Shown in pieces: positions 44,006 to 60,263 of a DNA stretch of 64,000 nt. The DNA comes from a virus. Each line of letters starts with the position of its first letter. Position 1 is the stretch's first letter. The DNA is taken from the IMG/VR virus record IMGVR_UViG_3300028654_000009. One strand, 5' to 3'. The notes under the pieces are model-generated. The model was given only the letters and a program-made list of their open reading frames with translations, searched no databases and had not been told where the DNA came from. The position numbers were made by a program, and so were the translations under genes.

Positions 44006-46057
44006 TTAGGGCTTGAATGATGGTTTGGGAGCGGAACCTGGAAGAGCGGTAGAGGGCACGCCGGCCTTCACACCTGGAAGCTTGGGGGTCTTGGGGGCTG
44101 CCGGAGGGGCAGCAGCAGGAGCGGCCACAGCGGCAGCGCCAGGGGCCTTGGGCATCGCAGGCTTTGAGGCTGGTAGACCGGCCTTATCGAGGCCAGGCAT
44201 CGACATCGCATCGTTGCCGGTGCCTCCGCCCATGCCCATTTCGTCCTTCTGGGTGCGCTGCCATGGACGCCTGAGAGCCTGCCCCTGCACGCGCTTGGTC
44301 TCGGCGGCATATACGTCACGCCGGCCCTGTACGGCCTTCTTGGCAGGCTTAGGGTCGACGACCTCTTTAGAGGGTTCCTTCTCTGCAGGCTTGGGATCGA
44401 CGACCTCTTTAGAGGGCTCCTTCTCTGCCAAAGCCATACGGGTGCCCATTGCGCGGGTGGCACCAGCGAGAGATGAATGCTCGCTAGGAGCCGACCATCC
44501 CTTGTTGCCGATGCCCTTGAACTTAGCAATCAGCCCCGAGAGGAAGCCTACACCAGCAGCGTGCTTGTCGGCCTTGAGCTGTGCAGCCTCGTCCACCTTG
44601 GGCTTCATTGTGCCCTGGTCGGGATGAGAGGGCTTGCGGAGGAAGCCGCCGGTCGGGATAGGCGCCGAGGTAGGCATGGCCGGGCTTGGCGGAGCACTGC
44701 GCTTAGGCGGAGCGGTGATGCCCGGAAGGCGTGGGCCAGGGGACTGGGTGTGGTCCACGCTCATCTGGGCATAGTCGGCCTTGATAATGCGCTTGCCGTT
44801 ACAAACAGCATCCGACTCGGGCTTATCGTGGGTCACAAGCTCACCGTCCTGGCGAACCTTCGCGTGTGCTCCACAGAGAGAACACTTCTTGGTCTTTGGG
44901 CCGGTATCTTTCTTCTCTGCCTTCTTTGTCACCTTGCCGCCCGAACCCTCTGCTTCAATTACCTTCTCTTTCTTGTCGTCGGGAAGTACGGCGCCCTTGG
45001 TGGGCTTCTCGGTAGCAGACTCAACCTCGGCGATCTCCTTCGAGGCAGGTTTTTCTTCCTTGCGGACGCTGTTGTCAACCGACTGCTTGTTTTCCTCAAC
45101 AGGGGTACTAGCCATGATGCCGCAAGTATGACAAGCGAAGTGATCTCGATTGCCGAGAGAGCCGATGTGGGCATATCTTTCGGACTCGCCACATCCCGGG
45201 CACTGGCGACCCAAAGCCTGGCTGTCAGTCTCGGTTTCGGGATTGCCAAACTCGTCCTTCTTAAACTTGTCCTTAATCATGCCAGCCACATGCTGAATAG
45301 CCGGCTTGGCAGTAGCCAAAGCCACACCCACGCCGTGAGCAACGGCGGACATGTCGGCTTTCTTGAGAGCGACAGCCGCTTCCTTGGCCAGGACAAACTT
45401 TACCTCTTGCTCATGCTTATCCAGAGCTGCACCCAGCGCCTTAGCGAGGCCTTGAGTGATATCTTTGCGAGTGGGTGAATTGTCCATTTTTTGTCTTTCA
45501 ATAGATTGGGTTTGGAGTTGTGGATACAAATTGTGTTTCTTGATCCCCACAGGCAAGGGAGTAGCGCTGTTCAAAGGCGCTTTGTAAAGCTTGTTCTCAT
45601 CGAAATGCAGCCGCACATAGTCAGGGCGCTCTTGGTTGCCAATACTGGTGTAGTAATCCTCTGGCGGCTGGGTCGGATGGTACCCATAGACAGGCAGGCT
45701 AGGATGAAAACTCCCGTCCTTGTCTCCATTAGAGTAAAGCATCTCTGCGTGCTTGTGGCCGCGTCCGAAAACTACTGACTCTTGCCCATAAGCCTTCGCC
45801 AGCCCATACATCTGCTCGCGAGTAGGATTCCGCACCGTAAAGCCAGATTCGGGCGCTCCATAATGGCCCTGGTGTTTTTGGTACTGCAAACCTAACTGCT
45901 GCAGATTCCGCTCTAAAGACGGATTACCTCCCTGAGCCTGCACGGGAAACCTGGGGTTCTCGGCAGTGATCAGCCCGAACGTGCCCGAAGGGTCGAAAAT
46001 GGGATGACTCCGAAGCTCGGGTAGAGGCTCGGAGTAAGTGGGCATGTCCTGTGGCAT
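44006..46057 (-). CDS. Late multidomain protein (DUF3293-like N-terminus, two Zn ribbons, low-complexity spacers); probable internal head protein
   Basis: LITAENP...GHYGAPESGF...YGQESV; CPGC/CHTC; CSLC/H-C; AATCTT box; many hydrophobic-x-K|A/D/E motifs. Confidence 0.6.
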   Translation of the reverse strand: MPQDMPTYSEPLPELRSHPIFDPSGTFGLITAENPRFPVQAQGGNPSLERNLQQLGLQYQKHQGHYGAPESGFTVRNPTREQMYGLAKAYGQESVVFGRGHKHAEMLYSNGDKDGSFHPSLPVYGYHPTQPPEDYYTSIGNQERPDYVRLHFDENKLYKAPLNSATPLPVGIKKHNLYPQLQTQSIERQKMDNSPTRKDITQGLAKALGAALDKHEQEVKFVLAKEAAVALKKADMSAVAHGVGVALATAKPAIQHVAGMIKDKFKKDEFGNPETETDSQALGRQCPGCGESERYAHIGSLGNRDHFACHTCGIMASTPVEENKQSVDNSVRKEEKPASKEIAEVESATEKPTKGAVLPDDKKEKVIEAEGSGGKVTKKAEKKDTGPKTKKCSLCGAHAKVRQDGELVTHDKPESDAVCNGKRIIKADYAQMSVDHTQSPGPRLPGITAPPKRSAPPSPAMPTSAPIPTGGFLRKPSHPDQGTMKPKVDEAAQLKADKHAAGVGFLSGLIAKFKGIGNKGWSAPSEHSSLAGATRAMGTRMALAEKEPSKEVVDPKPAEKEPSKEVVDPKPAKKAVQGRRDVYAAETKRVQGQALRRPWQRTQKDEMGMGGGTGNDAMSMPGLDKAGLPASKPAMPKAPGAAAVAAPAAAPPAAPKTPKLPGVKAGVPSTALPGSAPKPSFKP
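44343..44428. repeat. 42-bp tandem duplication (EKEPSKEVVDPKPA x2)
   Basis: Visible in protein and DNA. Confidence 0.8.
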
Positions 46058-46457: not shown

Positions 46458-49400
46458 TTAAAAAAGGCTCCAAGTGCTTCCGTCATAAACTAGCATATAA
46501 GGGCTACCCAACACTGGCACAACTGGCGAGCCAGTCTTAGTCTTGATGCCTCCCGCCGACGCCGAGTGACCCAACGTGATAGAAGCAGAGTTGGGAATCA
46601 ACACGATAATCGAGCCCGATTGCCAGCCCGTAGTGGTGATAGCCGTAACGGGTGTCGTGCCGCTTAGAACAAAAACATTCCCGTCGTTGCCGAGGGTGAT
46701 GGTCGCGGCGCTGGCGACGGTCGCGCCCTTGCCCTGCTGGTGGCGCGTGTTGTGCTGAAGCCCGTTGGCGTTGACGTGGAATTGCTGAGTGGTCGCCGAC
46801 GCGAAGCCGATGTCACCAGCGCCGATGCGCCACATTCCCGTGCCGGTGTCAGCGTTGAACGAATAGGACGGGGTGGTGTTGCCGCCGCCGGCGTTTGCCA
46901 GGATCGAGGCGTTAAAGACCAACGTGGTCCCCGACACCTGCATCAGTACGGTGCCGCCGGTCTGGAGTCCGACAGCGGTCGTGGTCGCCTTGCCCATCCA
47001 GACCGAGACGTTGTTGACCGATAGGACCTGCCAGTTTCCGCCGCCGAGAGAGATGATCTCGGCCGAGTCTCCGATGTCCAGGAGGATGCCCTGGGCGCCG
47101 CCTGGACAGAGAAGGGACGTGGAATTGTGAGTGAAACCGACGGATGACGCGGTGGTGTTCCGAAGTGTCACCCGCCGCCCGTTGGTGACCGTTCCGAAAG
47201 AGGTGATGTTGACGGCACCGGCACCGGTGAGCAGGACGTATCCGCCCGAGACGGTCGAGAGGTCGGTGGTGGTGGCCGCCGCGATGGATGCGGACGAACT
47301 GCCGAGTGCATCGAACGCAGCGCCTGCCGAGGTCTGCCCCGTGCCTCCTTGGCTAAATCCGAGAGTTCCTGAGATGTTGCCGAACGTAGGCTGAGCAGAG
47401 TTGAACGTTCCGAAGGTTCCATCAAACGCAGTCAGGAATTGATTAGCAGGCGAGACGTATTGGAAAGCCATTGTGCACAAATTCGCTGAGCTGCGCCCGC
47501 GCAATGCGTGCGTTGTGCTGTCCGCCCAAACGCGCAGCGAACCGGCGCTAGGCGCGGCAGGCGCCGCAATTTCAGTGAACTGAATGTCCCCGGCCGCCGG
47601 TACGTCGTTCGGGATGTTGGCGAGGGTCTGCACCGTCGATCCGAGTGGCTTCGTGACATCTCCCGTGAAGGCCGGGAGTTGGCCCGCCGTGATGACGCCT
47701 GAGATGCCCGAGAACGATGGCTGAGCCGCCGAGACCACACCGTTGTCGGAGATGGCGAAAATAAAGTTGTTTGCCGGTGGGGTAATGCTGCGGACCCCGT
47801 GGTTAACGTTCCCAGCGTCGTCCTTTGAACAGAAGTTTTTAGAGGTGCTGTCTCCATAGATAAACAGCTTGCCAGCCGCCGGAGAAGACGGAGCCACCAC
47901 GGAAGTCACAAGGATATCACCGGTCATGGTAACGCCGTTTGATATATTCAACAGAGTCGTTACACCAGAGCCTGCGGAAGTTGTTACATCACCTCCCGTA
48001 AAAGCGGGCAAGCGCCCTACTGGCAACGTTCCAGAGGTTAGGTCTGTGGCGGAGCCCGAGGTTGCAACGGTAGCAAGGCCCGACACGGCTCCGGCAGCAA
48101 TTGCAATAGCCGTAGAACCGGCAGCCGTTATCAAACCCTTCCCGTTGACGGTGAAGGTTCCTACACTAGCTGCTCCACCGAAACTGCCTACGTTGGAGTT
48201 GACCGTAGCAAGGGTAGAGGCATAGCTTGAAGTCGTTATGTCTCCGGTCAGAGGACCAAACTGGGTGCCAGCAAGAGTGCCAGAAATGTCAGAAAATCCA
48301 GGCTGAGCCAACACAGAAGAACCGTCGTCCGCAACCGAAGTCAAGAACTGGTGGCTTACGGCGGCTTTGGTCTGGATTCCATGGTTGACGACGCCTGCAT
48401 CGCTTTTAACAGCGAAGTTCTTGGAAGTGGAATCCACATAAAGGCGGGCCTTGCCGGCACTTGGGGTAACCGGCGCAACTATGGTGGTGGCCAGGAGATC
48501 GCCAGCCATGGGCACATCATTGGGGATGTTGTTGAGGGTGGTGGCGTACGAAAACCCTCCACCGTTTCCTATGTCCCCAGTAAGAGTGCCGAATCGTGCT
48601 GCGGGCAAAATCCCTGTCGTTAGGTCAGCGGCGGACCCCGAGGTGGCGATAGCGGCGAGGCCCGACACGGCTCCGGCAGCAATAGAAATCGGGGCGGACG
48701 AAGCAGCTGTCACCAGACCCTTCCCATTAAGGGTGAAGCTTACTGCGTGTGAGGCATCGCCAAACGAGCCTACGTTGGAGTTGACCGTGGCCAGGGTAGA
48801 GACATAGCTCGAAGTGGTTACGTCTCCGGTCAGAGGCCCAAACTGGGTTCCCGCCAAAGTGCCTGAGATGTCCGCGAATGCCGGCCTGCTGGCGGTGAAC
48901 TGCCCGGTAGAACTATCGAACGAACGAAGCCAGTTCGAGGCCACGGGCGCGATAGTAAAGGCTGTACTGGCTACTGCCCCTGAAGAGTTTTTTGAAGCAA
49001 GCGCCAAACTGGTGGAGTCGATGTAGCAACGAGCAGACCCTACAGAAGGGGTGGCAGGAGAAGCTTGAAGACCCCAAGATGTAAGACCCGTAAAAAACGT
49101 CAACTCTTGGGTAGAGCCACTGATCGTCATGGCGAAAGCACCATTTGCGATCAGGTTCATATTGTTAGAGCCTGAGGTACCGACATTGAAGGCACCATTG
49201 GCCTTCAGAATGGTCTGTGTCGCCGCCTTATCTAGGCCTACGGCTACGTTTGTGAAGCCGCCGAGATTGCCTGCGCTAGATACCGTAACAGGAGGTCCTG
49301 CGGCAGGAGTATAGGCCCCTCCGATCCCTACAAGGAGGCGCTTATTCAGGTTGTCCCAAAATAAATTGGTATCATCGGCGTCCACCAGGTGGCCGGTAGC

Positions 49401-50192
49401 ATCGATGAACGCAACCGCTCCAGGAGTCTTCGTCCATAGACTCCCAGAGATGTCCGCAAAGGTCGGCTGTGCCAGAACAGAAGAACCGTCGTCGGCAATC
49501 GAGGTTAGAAACTGGTGAGCTACTGCTGTCTTTGTCTGGATTCCGTGGTTGACGATGCCCGCATCGTTTTTAGCTGCGAAGTTCTTGGAGGTCGAGTCAG
49601 TGTAGACCACTACCTTGCCGGCCGCAGGCGTTGATGGAGCCGCGATATTAGTGTGGAGAATGGTTCCCGCTGCCGTCACCCCGGTCGGTATATTCACAAG
49701 GGTGGTAGCGAGGGCACCCGCCGAAGTGGTCAGGTCACCTGTCAGGGCGGGGAACCGGCCGGCCGGGAGGGTGCCTGATATCAAAGCCGAAGCGTCGATG
49801 GCGATCGAAATATTAGAAACGCCAGTTACTAGCCCCTTAGCGTTGACCACAAGCTGGGGAGTATGGGATGCGTCACTCCAGGTGCCTACGTTGGAATTTA
49901 CCGTGGCAAGTGTGGCAACAACCGAACCGGTACCGGAAAAGGCCACATCTCCAGTAGCGGCCGTAACCCCGTTTGATAGAGCTACGCTCCAAAAGGAACT
50001 GTTAGAGGGGGCATTGCCGGTAGACTGCTGGAGGCAGACGTAAGTCGCGGCATTGTAAACCACCGCATCGTACGGCAGATAGGTTACATTGCTGGCGTAG
50101 GCGCCCTTCCAGGTAAAGCCGCGACCATCCTTACCATAAATTACGGTAGGTATGGAATACTGCCGGGGCCTATTTTCATCATTCGCTGCCAC
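46458..50192 (-). CDS. Long tail fibre protein
   Basis: 1244 aa; N-terminal WKGAY carbohydrate-binding-like module; repeats shared with 7925-9922; AATCTT box 6 nt upstream. Confidence 0.8.
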   Translation of the reverse strand: MAANDENRPRQYSIPTVIYGKDGRGFTWKGAYASNVTYLPYDAVVYNAATYVCLQQSTGNAPSNSSFWSVALSNGVTAATGDVAFSGTGSVVATLATVNSNVGTWSDASHTPQLVVNAKGLVTGVSNISIAIDASALISGTLPAGRFPALTGDLTTSAGALATTLVNIPTGVTAAGTILHTNIAAPSTPAAGKVVVYTDSTSKNFAAKNDAGIVNHGIQTKTAVAHQFLTSIADDGSSVLAQPTFADISGSLWTKTPGAVAFIDATGHLVDADDTNLFWDNLNKRLLVGIGGAYTPAAGPPVTVSSAGNLGGFTNVAVGLDKAATQTILKANGAFNVGTSGSNNMNLIANGAFAMTISGSTQELTFFTGLTSWGLQASPATPSVGSARCYIDSTSLALASKNSSGAVASTAFTIAPVASNWLRSFDSSTGQFTASRPAFADISGTLAGTQFGPLTGDVTTSSYVSTLATVNSNVGSFGDASHAVSFTLNGKGLVTAASSAPISIAAGAVSGLAAIATSGSAADLTTGILPAARFGTLTGDIGNGGGFSYATTLNNIPNDVPMAGDLLATTIVAPVTPSAGKARLYVDSTSKNFAVKSDAGVVNHGIQTKAAVSHQFLTSVADDGSSVLAQPGFSDISGTLAGTQFGPLTGDITTSSYASTLATVNSNVGSFGGAASVGTFTVNGKGLITAAGSTAIAIAAGAVSGLATVATSGSATDLTSGTLPVGRLPAFTGGDVTTSAGSGVTTLLNISNGVTMTGDILVTSVVAPSSPAAGKLFIYGDSTSKNFCSKDDAGNVNHGVRSITPPANNFIFAISDNGVVSAAQPSFSGISGVITAGQLPAFTGDVTKPLGSTVQTLANIPNDVPAAGDIQFTEIAAPAAPSAGSLRVWADSTTHALRGRSSANLCTMAFQYVSPANQFLTAFDGTFGTFNSAQPTFGNISGTLGFSQGGTGQTSAGAAFDALGSSSASIAAATTTDLSTVSGGYVLLTGAGAVNITSFGTVTNGRRVTLRNTTASSVGFTHNSTSLLCPGGAQGILLDIGDSAEIISLGGGNWQVLSVNNVSVWMGKATTTAVGLQTGGTVLMQVSGTTLVFNASILANAGGGNTTPSYSFNADTGTGMWRIGAGDIGFASATTQQFHVNANGLQHNTRHQQGKGATVASAATITLGNDGNVFVLSGTTPVTAITTTGWQSGSIIVLIPNSASITLGHSASAGGIKTKTGSPVVPVLGSPYMLVYDGSTWSLF

Positions 50193-51296: not shown

Positions 51297-51707
51297 ATGC
51301 CAAACAACAAATTCGTACTTATCCCAGACAGCATGGCCCCAAATTTCCTAGGCCGACAGATCGCCCACAGCGATTACCTCGACACCAGCGACACCAAGTA
51401 CACGTTCGCAATGATCCCAGACACAGTGCAGGAGCTGGGTTCCGCGAACCTGGTTTCTTCGGTGTCGTTCGAGGATTCGAACAAGCACAAGCCGGCACTC
51501 GACATTGATATCCCGATGCACGTGTTCCCCTCCAGCACGAAGGGGTGCAACCACCTCTATTTCGACGTAGATATGACCTGGGACCAATACGTCAAGCTCC
51601 TCGACGTGATGGAGGAGGTCGGCATCCTTCAGGCGGGCTTCGTCAAGGCTTCCAAGAAGCGAGGGGCGACTTACCTGCGGCTGCCTTGGGTCAAGAAGAA
51701 GGTATGA
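51297..51707 (+). CDS. Conserved phage protein, possible minimal AEP/prim-pol-like domain
   Basis: HKPALDID...SSTKGCNHLY (DxD and SxxxGxH-like). Confidence 0.5.
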   Translation: MPNNKFVLIPDSMAPNFLGRQIAHSDYLDTSDTKYTFAMIPDTVQELGSANLVSSVSFEDSNKHKPALDIDIPMHVFPSSTKGCNHLYFDVDMTWDQYVKLLDVMEEVGILQAGFVKASKKRGATYLRLPWVKKKV

Positions 51708-52165
51708 TATCTCCCGAAGACTTGATATTCCTGCGGATTGCGATGGAGACAAGTGGGCGTTCCGTTGACCGCTCCACGCGCGTTGGCTCTGTCATAGTTA
51801 CAGAAAATGGACATATATTGGAAGCCCATAACGGTTTTCCGCGAGGTGTAAAGGAGTCGGACGCTCGACATACCAGGCCTGCGAAGTATCACTACTTTGA
51901 GCACGCTGAGAGGAACGCGATCTACCAGGCAGCTAGACGTGGCATTGCGACAGAAGGAGCTGCGCTCTATATGGCGGCAACTATGCCGGGCCCTCCGTGC
52001 TGTGACTGCTCAAGGGCATGCATTCAAGCGGGAATCTCCCGCGTGGTGTGCTCCTTCAGCGGGGGCGCCCTTACTTGGCGTGAAGACTGGCGAGCATCGA
52101 TGCTTGCCTCAGTTGAGATGCTCAAGGAGGCTGGCGTCTCGCTGGAGTTCGAGATCGAAGAGTGA
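51704..52165 (+). CDS. dCMP deaminase
   Basis: SVDRSTRVGSVIV, HNGFPRG, HAERNAI, PCCDC, IQAGI. Confidence 0.9.
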   Translation: MISPEDLIFLRIAMETSGRSVDRSTRVGSVIVTENGHILEAHNGFPRGVKESDARHTRPAKYHYFEHAERNAIYQAARRGIATEGAALYMAATMPGPPCCDCSRACIQAGISRVVCSFSGGALTWREDWRASMLASVEMLKEAGVSLEFEIEE

Positions 52166-52168
52166 CGT

Positions 52169-52981
52169 TTAAATCTTCGAGGCTATTCGCTCGATGAGAT
52201 CCGGCGTGATGTGTGACTCGACCTCCTCTAATGCCCAAGCGTATACCGAATCGAAGATGTGAACGGGCTGAAGACCCGGATGGAAGAACCCGTCTGGGTT
52301 CTTGGATGTGGCCACACGAAAGGTTAATACACTTTTTTTAGTGCCCCCAGAAGGTGTAGCCGACTGATACACAGAAACGCCCCTAAGGAACGGTATGCCT
52401 GTCTTGCCCTGCTTAACACCTCCCACTGGTCCGTGACCCTGCCCTGGACCTTCTCCGCTCTTGAGAGGTTTGTCCTCGATGTTGAACGAGTGAATCTTGC
52501 CCATCTTGGGACGGCCTTGTGCGTCCCGCTCGATTTTGGCTAGCGGAATCTTCCGCTTCTTCAGCTCGGCCCGAACGGTATCCACGGTCTCTTTGGAGGA
52601 CTCTGGAGTGTTCGTAGGGCCCTTCCCGGGGCCCACGTGCTGGAATGGTACCACCAGGTACTTATGCCCGTCCTTCGAGGTCTTGGCCGAAGGGCTGTTC
52701 AGCAATGCGTCCAGCATAGAATGCGGCTCCATGCCGTCGTCGATCCATACCGAACCTTGTGCAAGGGATAGGTAGTGCTCCCCGTTGCCTTCGTGGGTAA
52801 GACTCAGGGCTTCCACAAACATTTGCCTACGAGAATGCAGACGTTCGTTTGCTAGTTCTAAAGCTTTGGCGTGTACCTGTATGCTGAGGTCATTGGCGGC
52901 TTGCTCGGCTTCTTGCTTGATGATGTCTGCTAAGTCCTTGAAGCCAGCCAGGCAGCTGAGGTCGATATTGATGTTATACAT
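52169..52981 (-). CDS. Neck/tail-completion protein (HK97 gp10-like role)
   Basis: KDGHKYLVVPF, TFRVATS...FFHPG; TAATG-coupled to upstream giant ORF. Confidence 0.6.
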   Translation of the reverse strand: MYNINIDLSCLAGFKDLADIIKQEAEQAANDLSIQVHAKALELANERLHSRRQMFVEALSLTHEGNGEHYLSLAQGSVWIDDGMEPHSMLDALLNSPSAKTSKDGHKYLVVPFQHVGPGKGPTNTPESSKETVDTVRAELKKRKIPLAKIERDAQGRPKMGKIHSFNIEDKPLKSGEGPGQGHGPVGGVKQGKTGIPFLRGVSVYQSATPSGGTKKSVLTFRVATSKNPDGFFHPGLQPVHIFDSVYAWALEEVESHITPDLIERIASKI

Positions 52982-55900
52982 TACGGGCTATTCGGCTCCC
53001 TACTTGAGACAGCGTGACTGTTGGCCCCTCCGCCACCCGCGCCTCCGGGCTCAAGTCCCTGAATGAGGCCGGCTGTAACACCTTTCCACCCCACCGTGCC
53101 GTCCGCATGTTGCACCTTCAAGTGTCCATTGTGTAGCGAGCCCACAGGCAGCTCCAGGTCCTTGTGGGTCGGAGGCATGGACTCCTTGTTTAGCTCCTTC
53201 TCGGGCGGGAATTTCTCGTTGGGTTCGATTTCTTCTTTGGCTACATGGTGGGAGCAGTCTGGGCCACAAATCAAAAGGTCGTCCTCCTTCTCGGCCGGGA
53301 ATTCGCCCTTGAGGGTGTATTGGTAGGGCCCATGCCATTTAACGCCCCGGTTATCAACATAGTCGTCTGGCTCTGGGTTGTAACTCATCCCGTGCTTCTC
53401 GGCCAAGGACTGATGAACCCTGTGAGCCATTTCAGAATGGCTGCCTCCTTGAACGTCTTTGATCCCAAGCTTGTTCTTGGCGTGCGAGTAAAGAGCCTCG
53501 TACATGGCCTTCCCCAGACCTCGCCCCCGGAGACTGCTGCTCAGAAAAGAATGGGGGGTCAGCATCCCTTCCCATTTCTCTTTTTCCGCACCTGTGCCTA
53601 GGCTACGGTTGCGATAGTGAACGTCCGAATGGACATCTCCGTCTGTCATATGTTGAGCATCGTTGTGCAGCTCGGCAACGATATGATGGACATTGTACTT
53701 CCCTCCGACTCCATGCCGGCGCTCCTGCACAACCAGGCTGTGGGTCTTGCGCATCTCCTCGGGCAGCAGGTGTGAGTAGTTGTAGTTTCTGGCTACCACC
53801 GTCCCATGGAGGGTCCTGTCCACGTTTTGATACTTACCCACAGGAATGTCCTTGATGGCCTTCTCGACCTTTTGGTCATGACAGCCCTTCGGGCAAAGCA
53901 GAAGCTTTTCTTCGTCAACGTTCGGAGCCAGCTCGGCCTTGAGGGCATACTTATAAGGCATGTGTGAGATGTTCGAGCCATGGATTCCGGAACCGTCGGG
54001 ATTGATAGGATCGACTTTGTAGTCCAGGCCGTGTGTTGCCGCCAAGCTTCGATGTACAGCACTCGCCTGCGCAGAATGCATCCCTCCGGCAACCCCCTCG
54101 ACCCCCAGCTTGTTCTTTGCGTGGGAATACGTGGCTAGATACATCGCCTTCCCGAAGCCTTTCCCGTGGTGGGCCAGATCGAGGTCAGCATGGGGCTCGA
54201 TGTGCTTATTTTTGATATACCCCTGCACATTCCCGACCAACGGATTGTTGGACGATTCGTCGTTGATGTACGTGCTGAGGTAGTTTTTCGAAGGGTTGTG
54301 GCGGACGAACATCTTGAAGTTCGAAGGCGTACCTTGTGGGAGCAAATGGGAGTAGTCGTGTAGGTGGACGTCGTTGCCATTGGCGTCTTGGTAGGTGCTC
54401 ATATGTTTGCCGGTAGGAACGTCGGCGATGGCTTTCTCGATCTTCTGGTCGTGACAACCAGGAGGGCAAAGCAACAAAGTTTCCTCATCATGATCTGGGG
54501 CTAGCTCGCCTTTGAGTTGGTACTGGTAGCCGGCGTAAGGGTAACGTGTGGCCGAGATTTCAGGATCGTCAGAACCGTCCTCGGGACGAAGGACGTAGGG
54601 AACGTGTTCCAGGCCGTGTTTCTTCGACAGAGCGATATGGACCGCTTCTGCTTGTGGAGAATGAGGTCCGCCCTGTACGTGATCGATCCCCGCCACATGT
54701 TTTGCATGGGCGTAAAGAGCCTCATACATAGCTTTACCTAAACCCTGTCCGCGAAATTGCTCGTCTAGATCGGAGTGTGGTTCAAGCCTCGTAAATTTGG
54801 CGAAAGGATCGTACCCCTTAAAGGTTCTGACACTGTTGGGCGGCCGCACGTATCCAGTAACGGCTCCCACATATCTGGGGCGGTCTCGTCCTGGTCTCGT
54901 CAATCTCGCCACTATCCGCTCTTTGCCGTTTTCATTGTTTTGGAAAGAATGATGAACGTGGAGCGACAGGCCCTGCTCTTTTTGTTCTGGCGTCAAAAGA
55001 TGGCCGTAATCAAACTTCTTCTGAGTTACCGGGTCACCTGAATCATCGTCACCGTTAGGAAATGTGGTTTCCCCTTGAAACTTGCCCGGCTTCAGGTCAG
55101 AGATCGCTTTCTCGATCTTCTGGTCGTGACAGCCGGGCGGACAGAGCAACAGAGCCTCTTCATCATGATCGGGGGCCAGTTCATCTTTGAGTTGGTAATG
55201 GTAGCTATCATACGGGTACTGCTCCAAAGGCAGACCGAATCCGCTCTTGGGGTTTCTTTTCTTTGAAACGTAGTTTAGCCCCATTTCACCGGCTAGCGAT
55301 CGATGAACCCTGTCCGCCGCCGCTGAGTGTTCCCCTCCTACGACATGGTTCACCCCCAAAGTATGATGGACATGAGCATAGAGGGCCTTGTAAGCCGCCT
55401 TGCCCAGCCCCTTGCCACGATATTCCTTCTCTAACTGGGAGTGGGGCTCTAGGTATGGCTCCCCTTGGAGTTGATCTTGGAATTCGTACTCGGCATTTGT
55501 GGACGGATTAATGTGCCCATGGGCTCCACCGAGATTCTGCTGCACCCCGTAGTTGGATTTGCTCAGCCTTGCCTCGACCATAGATGGGAATTGTTTGTGC
55601 CCCTCCTTTCTCTGATGCACCTTCAGCGTAAGCCCCATCGAGCGCTGGGACGGGGTCAAAAGGTGGTTGTAGTCATAGACTTGGTTTACGATGTTTGTTT
55701 CAGGGATCGGTCGGTCTTCTTCATGGGGACCCGGAGAGATATCAGAGATAGCCTTCTCGATCTTCTGGTCATGGCAGCCAGGAGGACAAAGCAGCAGGGC
55801 TTCCTCATCATGATCTGGCGCTAACTCGCCTTTGATCTGGTAGTCGTAGTCCATATATGGATAACGCTGTACATGTTCGTCGTCCGGGTCTTCACCGTAT

Positions 55901-58278
55901 GCTTCCCTTTTTTCTGGGAAGTACCACAGCCCGTGTGCAACTGCCAAGGCTCGATGAACCTTAGAAGCGTCTTCTGAATGGACTCCCCCGGTTACGCGAT
56001 CGACTCCAGCTATGTGTTTAGCGTGCGTATATAACGCCTCATACATTTTTTTACCCAACCCCTGACCACGGTAGCTTGGTCCTAGAGAAGAATGGGGTTC
56101 TATAGAGCCTTCTACAATGTTCGCGTGTACCTGTCCCACACTACGTAACGGTGACGATGTTTCTGGCTGCCATGACCCACTCCCTGTGCTGTGATATACC
56201 CGAGATTTAATCTCGTCCTGCCGCCCAGGATGTACCATGTGCGACACTATCAGTTTGTAGCCCTGTTTTGTGTGTTCCGGGGTTAACATATGACTATAAT
56301 CATAGTTCTGCTGGGTAGAGCCTCTGGAGTTCAAAGGTGTGGGCTCCCCGACCGTCTTACCCGGCTTCAGGTCGGCGATAGCCTTCTTCAGCCCCGCCCG
56401 AACCACGTACGCCGGCAGGTGTGTCACGCCAGCGGCCTTAGCCGCCTCCACGCGGTGTGTCCCGTCCTTTACGGACCACGCCCCTGGGTTGCCAGGAGCG
56501 ACCACGATAGGGGGAACCTCGTCGCCAGCTCGGAGCATTTTGTGGTAAAGGGAATACCGGTCTTTATTGGCAGCCCCTCCACTGTTGCCCCCCTCTAGCA
56601 AAGCGACGGGCACCATAATCCGCTTCAGAGACTTGGTGTCGCCGTTGGTATAGTGACTAGCTACCGACGCCAGGTAGTTCTGGTCGAATGCTTGGCGGTC
56701 TGGGTGGTTCTTGCTGGGGATTTTTAGAGCCGACGTACCCCAGTCATCGGACGTCCATACTTTTGGGCGTTTTTCAGCCTTCTCCAATTCTTGGTCTCCT
56801 GTCTGGAGACCTCTCGCCAGCCCCACCACCGATTGAACCAAAGAAAGAATCGACTTGTACGTCTCGGGGAACTGCCCCTTCAGTTGGGTAATGACCGGTA
56901 ACTGCCCCTTCAGTTGGGTAAGGGACTCGGCCACACGCTGCTTAAGACTCTCCATCTCTTCCGAATTGCGAGCCGCAGACGCCCGGTCTTGCTTGTCCTG
57001 GGAGCCGGCCAGCTCATGGAATTGGTCTTCGGCGTCCTTGGCCTGGTGACTCATTTCGGGGGCGGGGCCCTGGTCGGCAATCGAATGTGCGACCTCTCCT
57101 TCGGAGTGTTCTTGCGTCTGAACGTGCGGGTGGACCTTCTTGGGGGGCGCCACCCCATGCTGGTGGCCGCCATGGGCGGCCGAGCCTTCGTTTTCGGCTT
57201 TGGTCATCTTAGGGATGGGCACCGTGGAGCTAGTAACGAAAAACTTGGGGTCGGAATTGACCTTGCCGTACATCGCCGTATGTGGGGGTCGCTTGGGTGG
57301 CGTTATAAGTTTGCGGATGTCGTGATCTGTAAGATCGCCATCGCTCTCGCCCATGTGGCCGAAAGCCGGGATCACAGGATTGCCAAATTGATGGTGCGTA
57401 GGGGCATACTTCATACGCCCCAAAAACATGTGCTGGTGTGAGCCAAACGGATGGTTGGTATACCCATGAGCCAAAATAACATTGGTACTCAACTTCGGGT
57501 TCTCATTAAGCCTGTCACGCAAATCGACTTCCAGTGGCGGGCCCTTCCAGCTTCCCTCTTTCCTTCCCCATTCGCCATCATCGAAAGCCATGCCCCCAAA
57601 TGGATTACCGTAAGCCTTGTTTATGGTATGAAGCTCGTCTAGACCGTGCGAGGGGTGCTCAAAGTCCTTGTGGTACTGGTCGTTGCCGGCCGATTTCCAT
57701 CCCTGCATCTCCAAAATCCCCGCAGCCTTCTCAGTGTCGGGGTGACCTGCCGGTAAGTAGGTCGTCGCGCGATACCTAGTTGCAGGCTGAGTGAATAGAG
57801 GGTCCTGGTCCCCAAAACTCTTGGCCAGCCCAATCTGGGGGCTCAGGTACTCGTCGGCAATTTTCTCGTCTTCCGTCTTGGGCTTATTCGCCTCGGCTAG
57901 GGTTTGGGGGACCGTTTCGTCGAAGAGCCGGACTCTATCGCGACCTTCTATTTTTCCTACCAAAAGGGCTTGCCCAGCTTCAGACATACGTCTCCCGATG
58001 CCGATAGTCAAAGTGGCTCCGGTTGCAGAATGATACTTCTGGCGGACGGATTCGACTTCTCCTAGTGCCGAGACCGGGATCTCGGCTAGATAACACTCAT
58101 CTCCCCCTTCCTCGACGACAGAGCCGCCGTGCTCAAGAGCCCAAGACACAAGAATCTGATTGCCAGCCTCGATCCTCTGGTTGATTCGGCGCACCTCTTC
58201 AACGTCATCTCTCTGGATGCTAGCTCCGATGAGATACCCGATTCGATCACCGTCGCAGGCTAGGAACAGTTTATCCAT
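52981..58278 (-). CDS. Modular polyprotein: mCpol-like cyclase + unknown domain(s) + ParB-like domain + 5 GNAT domains
   Basis: DGDRIG...GGDE; PPIVV...DGTHR; five (R/H)GxG(L/F)GKxxY motifs; repeated linker KxELAPDHDEExLLLCPPGCHDQKIEKAI; likely start ATG 58278. Confidence 0.85.
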   Translation of the reverse strand: MDKLFLACDGDRIGYLIGASIQRDDVEEVRRINQRIEAGNQILVSWALEHGGSVVEEGGDECYLAEIPVSALGEVESVRQKYHSATGATLTIGIGRRMSEAGQALLVGKIEGRDRVRLFDETVPQTLAEANKPKTEDEKIADEYLSPQIGLAKSFGDQDPLFTQPATRYRATTYLPAGHPDTEKAAGILEMQGWKSAGNDQYHKDFEHPSHGLDELHTINKAYGNPFGGMAFDDGEWGRKEGSWKGPPLEVDLRDRLNENPKLSTNVILAHGYTNHPFGSHQHMFLGRMKYAPTHHQFGNPVIPAFGHMGESDGDLTDHDIRKLITPPKRPPHTAMYGKVNSDPKFFVTSSTVPIPKMTKAENEGSAAHGGHQHGVAPPKKVHPHVQTQEHSEGEVAHSIADQGPAPEMSHQAKDAEDQFHELAGSQDKQDRASAARNSEEMESLKQRVAESLTQLKGQLPVITQLKGQFPETYKSILSLVQSVVGLARGLQTGDQELEKAEKRPKVWTSDDWGTSALKIPSKNHPDRQAFDQNYLASVASHYTNGDTKSLKRIMVPVALLEGGNSGGAANKDRYSLYHKMLRAGDEVPPIVVAPGNPGAWSVKDGTHRVEAAKAAGVTHLPAYVVRAGLKKAIADLKPGKTVGEPTPLNSRGSTQQNYDYSHMLTPEHTKQGYKLIVSHMVHPGRQDEIKSRVYHSTGSGSWQPETSSPLRSVGQVHANIVEGSIEPHSSLGPSYRGQGLGKKMYEALYTHAKHIAGVDRVTGGVHSEDASKVHRALAVAHGLWYFPEKREAYGEDPDDEHVQRYPYMDYDYQIKGELAPDHDEEALLLCPPGCHDQKIEKAISDISPGPHEEDRPIPETNIVNQVYDYNHLLTPSQRSMGLTLKVHQRKEGHKQFPSMVEARLSKSNYGVQQNLGGAHGHINPSTNAEYEFQDQLQGEPYLEPHSQLEKEYRGKGLGKAAYKALYAHVHHTLGVNHVVGGEHSAAADRVHRSLAGEMGLNYVSKKRNPKSGFGLPLEQYPYDSYHYQLKDELAPDHDEEALLLCPPGCHDQKIEKAISDLKPGKFQGETTFPNGDDDSGDPVTQKKFDYGHLLTPEQKEQGLSLHVHHSFQNNENGKERIVARLTRPGRDRPRYVGAVTGYVRPPNSVRTFKGYDPFAKFTRLEPHSDLDEQFRGQGLGKAMYEALYAHAKHVAGIDHVQGGPHSPQAEAVHIALSKKHGLEHVPYVLRPEDGSDDPEISATRYPYAGYQYQLKGELAPDHDEETLLLCPPGCHDQKIEKAIADVPTGKHMSTYQDANGNDVHLHDYSHLLPQGTPSNFKMFVRHNPSKNYLSTYINDESSNNPLVGNVQGYIKNKHIEPHADLDLAHHGKGFGKAMYLATYSHAKNKLGVEGVAGGMHSAQASAVHRSLAATHGLDYKVDPINPDGSGIHGSNISHMPYKYALKAELAPNVDEEKLLLCPKGCHDQKVEKAIKDIPVGKYQNVDRTLHGTVVARNYNYSHLLPEEMRKTHSLVVQERRHGVGGKYNVHHIVAELHNDAQHMTDGDVHSDVHYRNRSLGTGAEKEKWEGMLTPHSFLSSSLRGRGLGKAMYEALYSHAKNKLGIKDVQGGSHSEMAHRVHQSLAEKHGMSYNPEPDDYVDNRGVKWHGPYQYTLKGEFPAEKEDDLLICGPDCSHHVAKEEIEPNEKFPPEKELNKESMPPTHKDLELPVGSLHNGHLKVQHADGTVGWKGVTAGLIQGLEPGGAGGGGANSHAVSSREPNSP

Positions 58279-58861
58279 TGGGGAGCCTCGCACCCTTACG
58301 GCTGTTTTCTTCCACAGAAAGCGGCCTCAGGTTTGTATAGTGATTGACTCTCAAAAATCCTTCCCTATCATTCTCTAGGTCTACGGAAGACAGAGGTATG
58401 ATGTGGTCGATGCTCCAGACTGTTCCGTAGTTCTCCCAGGTCCACCCGGATTTGAATTGGGATTCAAGGTGGACCCTTGCTTGTTCTCCCGTGCACCCCA
58501 TATCTCTAACCGACGATCCCGCCCTGCTCCCCCTTTTGATAGCTTTCACAATTCTAGATCGGAGGTTGCATAGTATCCTAAATCCGGGGTCTATTTTTTT
58601 TCGAGCGATACGATATTGGTTGTTACTGTCAATCTCTTTTTTACGATTTCGCTCGTAGTGTTTCTTCCTGTTCGCTACAACCTGTTCCGGATTCTCTTCT
58701 TTCCACCGTTTCACACTAAGATATACTGTTCCCGAATTTTTGATCCGATATTGTTTGGCATAAAGGGCCGCACAGAGTTTGCAAGGATTTCCTTTTTTGC
58801 TAAATTCAATGATAGGCTTCTCGACCTTACATTTCGAACAAATCTTCTGTTGCGGCACCAC
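58271..58861 (-). CDS. HNH homing endonuclease
   Basis: CSKC...CKLC; WTWENYG..WSIDHIIPLS...HYTNLRPLSVEENSRK; AT-richer than flanks. Confidence 0.9.
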   Translation of the reverse strand: MVPQQKICSKCKVEKPIIEFSKKGNPCKLCAALYAKQYRIKNSGTVYLSVKRWKEENPEQVVANRKKHYERNRKKEIDSNNQYRIARKKIDPGFRILCNLRSRIVKAIKRGSRAGSSVRDMGCTGEQARVHLESQFKSGWTWENYGTVWSIDHIIPLSSVDLENDREGFLRVNHYTNLRPLSVEENSRKGARLPNG

Positions 58862-58904: not shown

Positions 58905-59741
58905 ATGAAGCCTCAAGACTTAGCCATCCTGCCATCCCCGCGTATCGCAAGTTCCTCTTTGGATAGCGGGGGGCGGCTTATTGTTATTGGTGACGTGCAT
59001 GGGTGCCTGGACGAGCTTGTGTCTCTTGTTGAAAGATTGGGCCTACGATCCACCGATAGAACGGTTTTTGTTGGTGACTTCGTCGATAGGGGTCCTTGCT
59101 CTGGTGAAGTGGTCTCCTGTGTCAAATTCAGCTGCGACGTCGGCCTGTCCAGTGCTGTGCTTGCGAACCACGAAGAAGTCGCCGTTCGCTGGAGGGCCCA
59201 CGAACTGGGCGTCAAAGCCGACCCGGAACACTATCGCAATCCGATGGCCCAAAAGCAAGGTCGGAAGGATACCGACCAGGCGCTGACAGACGACCAGGTC
59301 CTGTGGCTTGCCAGGCTGCCCGCCATTATCAAAGTCACTACTCCGGGTGGGGTTCGCCTTATCACGCACGCGGGGCTGCTTCCTGACGAAACTGGGCGCT
59401 ACCACCAGCCCACCAAAGCTCTCATCCGCAACCGCTACCTCAGGCAGCGACCGGACGGTCTCTGGAGGCCCACGGGCAGCCTCTTCCACGGCCCGGAAGA
59501 CAGATTCTGGACGACCCTCTGGACGGGGCCCAGGGTCATCTACGGGCACGAAGTCGTCGCCGACAGGGCTACCCCTCGGGTAGAAAACAACACGTACGGG
59601 ATCGACACTGGGTGCGTTTTCGGGGGTCGTCTGACAGCCTACGTCGAAACGTTCGAAATGGACGGCTCGTCCAAGGTCGAATTCGTCCAGGTCCAGGCCC
59701 AGCGCGAATACTACGCCTATAATTCCACCGCAACGGTTTGA
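58905..59741 (+). CDS. Metallophosphoesterase (PPP/Pnkp-phosphatase/ApaH-like)
   Basis: GDVHGC, GDFVDRGP, NHE, HAG, YGH, IDTGCVFGGRLTA. Confidence 0.9.
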   Translation: MKPQDLAILPSPRIASSSLDSGGRLIVIGDVHGCLDELVSLVERLGLRSTDRTVFVGDFVDRGPCSGEVVSCVKFSCDVGLSSAVLANHEEVAVRWRAHELGVKADPEHYRNPMAQKQGRKDTDQALTDDQVLWLARLPAIIKVTTPGGVRLITHAGLLPDETGRYHQPTKALIRNRYLRQRPDGLWRPTGSLFHGPEDRFWTTLWTGPRVIYGHEVVADRATPRVENNTYGIDTGCVFGGRLTAYVETFEMDGSSKVEFVQVQAQREYYAYNSTATV

Positions 59742-59771
59742 CATTCCAGAAAAGAAAGGTAAGATTGAGAC

Positions 59772-60263
59772 ATGAACCTCACCTCTTTTGCGAATTCGGT
59801 CACCCCCGGAACCGCCCTGATTCTTCGGGGGTGTCAGGGGGCCGGCAAGTCGACTCTGGCCCACCTGGTAACCGGGCGTCTGACCGGCAAGATTTGTAGC
59901 GCCGACAAGTCCAGGATCGATACTTACGGCACCTACGTTTACAAGCCCGAGGAGAACGGTCTTCATCACGCCAATTGCCTCAAGGCCTTCATCTCTGCCG
60001 CGCAGAACGACACCCTCCGCGAGAAGGGCGTGTTGGTCTGCGACAACACCAACGTCACGGTCGAGGAGATCACGCCGTATCGGGCCATCGCTACGGCCTT
60101 CGGGTGGGCGCCGCTGGTCGTCACCCTGATGCCCAATGACCCATTCCTTGCTGCCGAGCGGCAGCTGCACGGAGTGCCTGTCAAAAAGGTCATCAACGTC
60201 GCAGACCGTGTCTGTGACATCAAGCTTCCTTCAAACTGGGCTCACATCACCATTCAGGACTAA
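59772..60263 (+). CDS. P-loop kinase (AAA_33/polynucleotide kinase-like)
   Basis: LRGCQGAGKST, SAD, DNTN, RQLHGVP. Confidence 0.85.
   Translation: MNLTSFANSVTPGTALILRGCQGAGKSTLAHLVTGRLTGKICSADKSRIDTYGTYVYKPEENGLHHANCLKAFISAAQNDTLREKGVLVCDNTNVTVEEITPYRAIATAFGWAPLVVTLMPNDPFLAAERQLHGVPVKKVINVADRVCDIKLPSNWAHITIQD

Follow-up and report, generated by a model that had tools for sequence, protein, structure and literature searches.

Polyvalent proteins, in which GNAT and ParB domains can share one chain and for which delivery by the capsid is predicted, have been described by Iyer et al. (2017; PMC5512222), and the processing of internal proteins by a prohead protease is textbook knowledge for T4 and for phiKZ/SPN3US (PMC10052503). 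Here, we have analysed a 64,000-nucleotide stretch of viral DNA (IMG/VR record IMGVR_UViG_3300028654_000009; this whole stretch is called the window) and, within it, the gene of a 1765-aa protein, hereafter the big protein, which strings together a minimal CRISPR polymerase (mCpol) domain, a ParB-like domain and five GNAT domains. The window belongs to a 165,848-bp metagenome contig (ENA ERZ27245396) of a soil phage, and the element is a myophage of about 166 kb of the type of Myxococcus phage Mx1. We consider it marginally probable that the big protein is a late polyvalent effector, which is cut after lysine at its joints by the head protease and ejected with the DNA. It carries at its module boundaries a lysine motif that recurs in the capsid protein, the scaffold and the protease of the phage, and the argument is built on this shared motif.

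The minus-strand open frame extends over 52981-58293, and the first ATG at 58278 gives the 1765-aa protein (52981-58278) in agreement with the preliminary description of this DNA. The modules named in that description, i.e. mCpol, ParB-like domain, five GNAT domains, a His-rich/helical segment and an orphan domain, were recovered by profiles, by alignment of the repeats and by a structural model (Table 1). The curated cut-off of the mCpol family PF18182 is 26.4 bits. The mCpol domain aligns end to end with Panoptes OptS (9mnr, 9nwn), its DGD pair and GGDE loop are intact, and the enzyme is apparently catalytically intact; the domain is also N-terminal in the orthologs P0002-P0006 and in Mx1 WNM70340. 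In the big protein itself the ParB-like domain gave a weak phrog_1033 match only (E 9.7e-5), with its DGTHR motif present. Compared by BLASTP with ParB_N-bearing homologs, the segment gave E 1e-21 to 1e-10, and the homologous segments in P0002 and other relatives carry PF02195.

The five GNAT units follow each other in tandem at residues 633-1681, are 191-225 aa long and show pairwise identities of 32-51%. Pfam Acetyltransf_1 matches the region (E 6e-16), the acetyl-CoA loop R/Q-x-x-G-x-G/A is present in all five, and the diverged units look competent as acetyltransferases. An AlphaFold2 (AF2) model of the second unit (R2) with its flanks, made from a 57-row alignment, has a mean predicted local distance difference test (pLDDT) score of 82.5 and matches the GNATs YncA, Naa60 and RimI with a Foldseek probability of 1.0. 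In this model pLDDT exceeds 90 from A843, the residue after the lysine, to the Y-x-Y-x-L-K end of the unit, and falls to 51-59 in the spacers on either side.

Besides these domains, the chain has three further parts. The helical segment is kept in P0002, P0003, P0004, P0006 and Mx1 WNM70340 at varying positions in the chain, and the C-terminal tail, a possible anchoring or targeting piece, is also found in P0004, P0006 and Mx1 WNM70340. The orphan region X had no relative among the family members and no match in the atlas, and a search against 1.84 billion representative proteins returned only the parent protein itself. Its sole non-self match was rejected as a chance similarity to an unrelated repeat protein.

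Thirty-three homologs on 100-170-kb contigs join the same GNAT module with varied cargo (ParB, mCpol, NUDIX, PI3/4-kinase-like, PBECR5, ART-PolyVal, radical-SAM), and five mCpol-headed orthologs carry helix, ParB and GNAT in differing order between the mCpol head and the tail. Cargo swapping, which the preliminary description had named as a check, was found in this set, with modules replaced and reordered between the motifs. Since the orthologs vary the modules between mCpol head and tail, the big protein can be viewed as a conserved frame with swappable cargo, and this arrangement is the syntax of the 'polyvalent proteins' (PMC5512222). Polyvalent proteins carry 2-15 distinct effector domains per chain, here mCpol, the ParB-like domain, five GNATs and the orphan region, and are encoded in a late or virion gene setting of a portal-terminase phage; in our case, the tail sheath gene lies downstream, and portal, 1237-aa protease fusion, scaffold and capsid protein are encoded on the same contig.

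The likeness to the polyvalent proteins of PMC5512222 is one of gene setting and of many unrelated effector domains per chain, and it extends to the domains themselves (GNAT and DdrB-like ParB here; NUDIX, ART-PolyVal, PBECR5 and kinases in the homologs) and to the packaging and injection predicted for them. The difference lies in the processing. The published model uses an embedded zincin-like peptidase, frequent though not obligatory, for self-processing, whereas no peptidase was found among the Pfam and PHROG matches of the big protein, which instead has a regular lysine motif in common with capsid protein, scaffold and protease. Moreover, neither an mCpol head nor five GNATs in tandem, which here belong to a distinct 'DYSHLL' subfamily, are mentioned in the main text of PMC5512222, where the words mCpol, Cas10 and 'tandem' do not occur.

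The lysine motif consists of a hydrophobic residue (Phi), any residue, and lysine followed by a small residue; an arrow marks the candidate cut. The ten joint motifs listed in the preliminary description (LAK↓S, MTK↓A, LEK↓A, LKK↓A, IEK↓A three times, VEK↓A, VAK↓E and LNK↓E) are all present in the big protein. We distinguished a strict form, Phi-x-K-[ASM]-[EDIA], and a loose form, Phi-x-K-[AS]. The strict motif occurs eight times in the big protein compared with 0.9 expected by shuffling, although the four IEK/VEK↓A joints are not independent because they are copies of a single repeat unit. At the position of GLAK↓S behind the mCpol domain, the orthologs have VK↓AE or LNK↓AE. The sites VAK↓E and LNK↓E deviate from the family consensus, in which P1' is A or S. 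Loose copies are found off the joints as well, as INK↓A at residue 221, LSK↓S at 907, and GLGK↓A or GFGK↓A within the acetyl-CoA loop of four GNAT units.

The motif is over-represented 4-5 times in 34 related polyvalent proteins. In the whole proteins the strict form was observed 169 times compared with 32.9 expected, and outside the GNAT modules 94 times compared with 23.2 (z 14.6). Control motifs outside the GNAT modules were at expectation, both with Arg for Lys (24 vs 23.8) and with the motif reversed (24 vs 23.5). In Mx1, Phi-x-K-[AS]-E was found 15 times in the head-module proteins, where 1.4 were expected, and four times in the other 150 open reading frames (ORFs), where 5.1 were expected; on the contig of the present phage, the loose motif numbers 55 in head-module proteins (21.8 expected) and 36 elsewhere (29.3 expected). 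The preliminary description would have been contradicted by a lack of enrichment at the domain boundaries of homologs, and there we found enrichment at GNAT and NUDIX boundaries. Of 51 GNAT starts, 29 have a site, where random placement gave 9.0 ± 2.7 and never more than 17 in 500 trials; sites are also present at 25 of 50 GNAT ends (12.6 random) and at eight of nine NUDIX ends (2.2 random), counts that overstate independence because the homologs are related. In 26 GNAT modules P1' lies on or beside position 1 of the profile.

The same motif stands at the N-terminus of the capsid protein. The capsid protein of this phage (463 aa, phrog_752, 58% identity to the Mx1 capsid protein) begins with TELKK↓ALEAGNYDAAPSTL, and the lysine at residue 12 (LKK↓ALEAG) provides its only Phi-x-K-[ASM] site. 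A comparison with the capsid propeptide site, which the preliminary description had called for, thus speaks for a common motif. The Mx1 capsid protein has LRK↓AMEAG at residue 14 and three other relatives have LLK↓A, LKK↓A and LKK↓A at 11-15, so that the capsid N-termini of five phages read L-x-K↓A-[L/M]-E-A-G at residues 11-15. The scaffold-like protein has nine lysine-motif sites. Taken at the level of sequence, Phi-x-K↓[A/S] is common to capsid protein, scaffold, protease, Mx1 portal and big protein.

The protease is the N-terminal part of a 1237-aa fusion with GGDEF, encoded on the same contig about 20 kb past the end of the window, in which the N-terminal domain leads into VRK↓AIEAG…APSSLTGG. 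For the protease domain, no family match was obtained from sequence searches of Pfam, PHROG and PDB. The 50 best PDB matches that Foldseek gave for its AF2 model (71-row alignment, pLDDT 82.6) are all herpesvirus assemblins or T4 gp21. Three residues never vary in 71 homologs: His54, Ser135 and, behind the protease domain, the motif lysine Lys229. The modelled fold thus indicates that the phage encodes an assemblin-fold capsid protease. Fusions of the protease domain with GGDEF, PI3/4-kinase-like, ParB or other cargo occur in more than 268 homologs. Among 120 protease-cargo homologs listed, 102 have the 'APSxLTGG' anchor; a lysine lies nine residues ahead of it in 95 of these 102, P3 is L/M/V/I in 98% of the anchored sequences, and P1' is A/T/S.

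Proteases of the assemblin family share a grammar in which P3 is hydrophobic, P1 specific and P1' small, exemplified by V/L-x-A↓S in herpesviruses and L/I-x-E↓ in T4. The lysine motif follows this grammar. The SPN3US prohead protease uses A-x-E↓ (PMC10052503). The comparison can be carried further to T4 IPI-III/Alt, processed by gp21, and to the inner-body and ejection proteins of phiKZ/SPN3US, processed by gp175/gp245, where an assemblin-fold protease acts on a single short P3-x-P1 motif; capsid protein, scaffold and packaged internal proteins are all cut, and the products are ejected into the host (PMC10052503). In these phages, however, cutting takes place after Glu and mostly removes N-terminal propeptides of single-function proteins (PMC10052503), whereas P1 in the big protein would be Lys and the candidate sites would dissect a chain of ten pieces.

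Four of the joints carry, in addition to the motif, a 25-aa spacer. At these joints the stretch ELAPDHDEEALLLCPPGCHDQKIEK and the AI-x-D behind it hardly vary, while 11-16 of the 33 codons differ synonymously and the module bodies are only 32-51% identical. Because the protein sequence is nearly identical despite so many synonymous differences, the spacer peptide is under strong purifying selection, and recent gene conversion as the cause of the likeness is ruled out by the same differences. The spacer contains a His…Cys-x3-Cys-His pattern, and it could be a zinc knuckle or other metal-binding element, or a docking or address peptide. No spacer-like sequence was found in the 23 homolog sequences read, and the spacer is present in the big gene only. 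The alignment is shallow across the spacer, and for this reason its low pLDDT is weak evidence of disorder.

The conserved frame, consisting of an N-terminal mCpol cyclase, the helical segment and the C-terminal tail, is loaded in this phage with the orphan region, the ParB/Srx-like domain and five GNATs. To account for these observations, we propose that the chain would be made alongside the head proteins and taken into the prohead, where the assemblin-type serine protease would cut after the Lys of Phi-x-K↓[A/S] at module boundaries, by the same code with which it would trim the capsid N-terminus and dismantle the scaffold. About seven separate enzymes would come to lie in the mature head together with small spacer peptides: the mCpol cyclase, the ParB-like protein and five acetyltransferases, besides the orphan piece. 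Ejected together with the DNA, the released enzymes would act on the host from the first moments of infection. The preliminary description had likewise read the protein as a processed effector; the modular chain, the shared motif and the assemblin-fold protease uphold that reading at the level of sequence and fold, while packaging, cleavage, ejection or injection, and the targets of the enzymes are what we infer from them.

Several observations weigh against this proposal. No capsid-targeting tag was recognised, and neither the C-terminal tail nor the helical segment nor the spacer has further copies in the contig or in Mx1 beyond the big gene and its ortholog, so that tail and helical segment are unique to this protein in both genomes. 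The motif by itself cannot define cutting, because loose copies such as GLGK↓A sit in folded GNAT cores, and about half of the GNAT modules of the homologs have no recognisable site at a given boundary; the homolog counts are, moreover, phylogenetically non-independent. A conserved spacer of 25 residues far exceeds what a cut site needs and is not explained by cutting alone; the H...C-x3-C-H pattern may mark it as a small element that binds metal, and its low pLDDT may reflect the shallow alignment rather than disorder. The protease family is one without a Pfam or PDB sequence match, its preference for Lys at P1 being suggested by conservation. Finally, there is the precedent of the N4 virion RNA polymerase, a polyvalent protein that is packaged uncut (PMC5512222).

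That precedent leads to the alternative that the big protein is packaged and delivered as an uncut, full-length polyvalent protein, with motif and spacer serving as linker, domain cap or docking peptide. Several plasmid polyvalent proteins, like the N4 enzyme, move in full length (PMC5512222), the residues after the lysine (AI-x-D-I-x-x-G) are part of the modelled GNAT fold, the conservation of the spacer with its His/Cys pattern would suit a small structural or metal-binding element, and many module boundaries of homologs have no site. What this alternative accounts for poorly is that the motif with its invariant Lys is also found at the capsid N-terminus and behind the protease domain, where a GNAT cap makes no sense, that it flanks unrelated domains such as NUDIX, and that its enrichment is confined to head-module proteins and is not seen for the reversed motif, which has the same composition. 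We regard an uncut protein as unlikely, though it deserves to be taken seriously.

It is also conceivable, though improbable in our view, that the big protein is a non-virion, cytoplasmic array of enzymes, processed or not, whose task might be, for instance, to acetylate components of the phage or the host while particles are assembled; its place in the late block would then reflect timing only. The search for tag copies in the contig and Mx1, which gave no targeting signal, would agree with this, as would the non-structural genes interspersed in the block (HNH-like and deaminase genes here, ThyA and dNMP kinase in Mx1) and a natural variant in which the big protein is truncated at codon 469. 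This variant, on JGI 3300028653, lies on a contig that is 99.987% identical, and its one mismatch in 7.7 kb is the stop, which removes ParB, five GNATs and tail; it was found on one contig, near the contig end, and may be a genuine dispensability variant or an error. The identical full-length protein, by contrast, is present on 13 contigs from several samples. We considered the resulting 468-aa 'short form' as a cargo-free natural variant and rejected it, as it results from a single nonsense change in otherwise identical DNA, and a word-index search for shorter mCpol-headed forms gave only this variant of the big gene.

Known systems keep this protease inside the prohead. It is for this reason that the candidate code shared with capsid protein, scaffold and portal argues for co-location with them and against a cytoplasmic array. 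The gene order points the same way. The big gene belongs to the late block and precedes the tail sheath gene on the same strand; the minus-strand order is big gene, genes of 270 aa, 344 aa, 1244 aa and 683 aa, tail sheath and putative tube, and all except the 1244-aa gene are collinear with Mx1 (WNM70341, WNM70343, WNM70344, sheath and WNM70096). The stop codon of the big gene overlaps the start of the 270-aa gene in the DNA, sharing one A with its ATG (…CCGTAATGTAT…), and the TAATG coupling reported in the preliminary description is real. Since WNM70341 lies directly 3' of the gene of the mCpol protein in Mx1, the 270-aa gene is a conserved partner, and the big gene is thus coupled to a conserved partner in a same-strand block that leads to the sheath. 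The domain repertoire of the family is, in addition, that of proteins predicted to be delivered by the capsid (PMC5512222).

A structural head-neck accessory, anchored at portal or neck by its C-terminal tail and displaying or holding its enzymes rather than releasing them, is very improbable: the parts conserved in the orthologs are indeed mCpol head, helix and tail, and the gene always lies directly before the 270-aa partner and upstream of the sheath, but enzymes of the cytoplasmic type would have no substrate outside the cell (GNAT needs acetyl-CoA and mCpol needs NTPs), the motif favours cleavage, and the cargo is highly variable.

Comparison with Mx1 bears on the frame and its cargo. A megablast search with 20 kb against the phage collection gave no match, and tblastn of the big protein against the same collection found Mx1 as its sole match. 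The positional ortholog WNM70340 of Mx1 (OR576727), 468 aa long, consists of mCpol head, helical segment and C-terminal tail and no more, and is followed, like the big gene, by the homolog of the 270-aa gene. The GNAT and ParB-like modules, with the same lysine motif, are present in Mx1 too, though in a separate polyprotein near the capsid gene, WNM70333 ('NUDIX hydrolase', 1479 aa), and the mCpol protein of Mx1 is free of cargo. In its mCpol domain, the DGD and GGDE motifs that are intact here have been lost (IDH…, LGAVG). As Mx1 keeps the domain without its catalytic residues, mCpol may be structural or targeting and not catalytic in some lineages. The present contig encodes a second polyvalent protein, of 1344 aa, with NUDIX and two kinase-like domains and with GLAK↓A, GLNK↓A, RMAK↓A, MMSK↓A and SLMK↓A; its gene follows the capsid gene at a distance of a few genes, an arrangement shared with Mx1.

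The mCpol head has its closest described counterpart in bacterial Panoptes OptS/mCpol (9mnr, 9nwn; PMC12657230, PMC12657218), with which it has in common the Cas10-like palm of about 120 aa, the Asp pair that binds metal and a loop of the GGDE type. In bacteria, mCpol is a stand-alone enzyme of host defence, paired with a 2TM-beta or CARF-TM effector (PMC12657230, PMC12657218). The phage mCpol, on the contrary, heads a late polyprotein, and its neighbours are an HNH-like gene and a late gene, with no effector gene. The two Panoptes papers (PMC12657230, PMC12657218) make no mention of a virion, polyvalent or phage-borne mCpol.

Table 1. Coordinates of the big protein's modules and of adjoining genes in the window
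Feature	Position	Strand	Basis
HNH/endonuclease VII-like gene, upstream, 196 aa	58271..58861	-	phrog_1035, E 4e-17
mCpol domain, aa 1-135	57874..58278	-	Pfam PF18182, E 2e-9, 38.2 bits
Lys153 codon, candidate cut site GLAK↓S behind mCpol	57820..57822	-	motif read in sequence
Orphan region X, about aa 154-360, MTK↓A at end	57199..57819	-	without relatives
His-rich stretch and conserved helical segment, about aa 361-500, LEK↓A at end	56779..57198	-	ortholog conservation
ParB/Srx-like domain, aa 501-632, LKK↓A at end	56383..56778	-	phrog_1033, DGTHR motif
GNAT module R1, aa 633-842, with 25-aa spacer at its C-terminus and IEK↓A	55753..56382	-	profile and repeat alignment
GNAT module R2, aa 843-1057	55108..55752	-	modelled fold begins at A843 (P1')
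GNAT module R3, aa 1058-1282	54433..55107	-	repeat alignment
GNAT module R4, aa 1283-1473, VEK↓A	53860..54432	-	repeat alignment
GNAT module R5, aa 1474-1681, degenerate spacer, VAK↓E	53236..53859	-	repeat alignment
25-aa spacers ELAPDHDEE-x-LLLCPPGCHDQKIEK	55753-55827, 55108-55182, 54433-54507, 53860-53934	-	repeat alignment
C-terminal tail, aa 1682-1765, conserved	52984..53235	-	51% identity to P0002 C-terminus
270-aa coupled gene	52169..52981	-	phrog_16819; 35% identity to Mx1 WNM70341
dCMP-deaminase/MafB19-type deaminase gene	about 51705-52165	+	
1244-aa protein gene	46458-50192	-	
683-aa protein gene	44006-46057	-	

The genes on either side of the big gene need a further remark. The 270-aa partner had been labelled neck/tail-completion-like in the preliminary description, and this label was not sustained: its only match is phrog_16819, a family without assigned function, and Pfam and PDB sequence searches lent no support. 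For the 270-aa and 344-aa neighbours, searches of this kind (Pfam, PHROG, PDB sequences) yielded no usable match apart from phrog_16819, and a faint match of the 270-aa protein to the P22 Inj_translocase (E 0.019) was under the cut-off and was not used. On the other side, the ATG of the big gene overlaps the stop of the upstream 196-aa gene by 8 nt (ATGGATAA). That gene is, by its family match, HNH/endonuclease VII-like and not a neck gene; because the corresponding 70 kb of Mx1 has no match to it, it may be an insertion of the homing-endonuclease type into the late block.

Further upstream, a 375-aa ORF (59043-60170, minus strand) was considered as the capsid gene and rejected. It is rich in Arg, Gly, Pro and Val, has no matches, and is almost certainly spurious; the true genes lie opposite it on the plus strand (Metallophos, 58905-59741; AAA_33 kinase, 59772-60263). 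The deaminase gene lies on the opposite strand within the late block and adjoins the end of the 270-aa gene. The 1244-aa protein is rich in Ser, Thr, Ala and Gly, has internal repeats (e.g. DSTSKNFA-x-K-x-DAG-x-VNHG) and a fibre-like look, and has no Mx1 counterpart at that position. The 683-aa protein, encoded just upstream of the sheath, has two ribbons of the CxxC…CxxC type and a long tail rich in Lys, Ala and Pro; it is partly homologous to Mx1 WNM70344, and in both proteins the lysine motif is above expectation.

The preliminary description had held the combination of domains with regular processing sites to be undescribed. GNAT/ParB polyvalent proteins (PMC5512222) and prohead trimming (PMC10052503) are published, and that part of the claim falls; what stands as new, compared with these sources, is the lysine code at every joint, which the chain has in common with protease, scaffold and capsid protein and by which its ten pieces would be separated. 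Also new are the apparently active mCpol that a phage carries at the head of such a chain, and five paralogous GNATs in tandem.

A more far-reaching view, which we offer as a long shot, is that Mx1-like phages use a plug-and-play delivery code, by which any enzyme module that is flanked by Phi-x-K↓[A/S] and sits in a head-module polyprotein would be loaded into the prohead, cut free by the assemblin-type protease and injected, and mCpol/GGDEF synthases would be delivered at entry. The mCpol, together with the GGDEF cyclase of the protease fusion, could then replenish decoy nucleotides of the Panoptes type or rewire host signalling, and the 25-aa spacers could be address or exosite peptides released as by-products. 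As Mx1 is a cultured Myxococcus phage, the prediction is directly testable.

If the cuts are confirmed, capsid proteases would double as dispensers, and one late gene would yield a pre-made set of enzymes that is delivered with the DNA. The group of phages concerned is large and environmentally common, with the protease-cargo fusions counted above and dozens of polyproteins on 100-180-kb contigs. Their cargo could be read from sequence by a simple rule, namely as the modules between Phi-x-K↓[A/S], and this rule would flag mCpol and five paralogous acetyltransferases as candidates for early host takeover or counter-defence.

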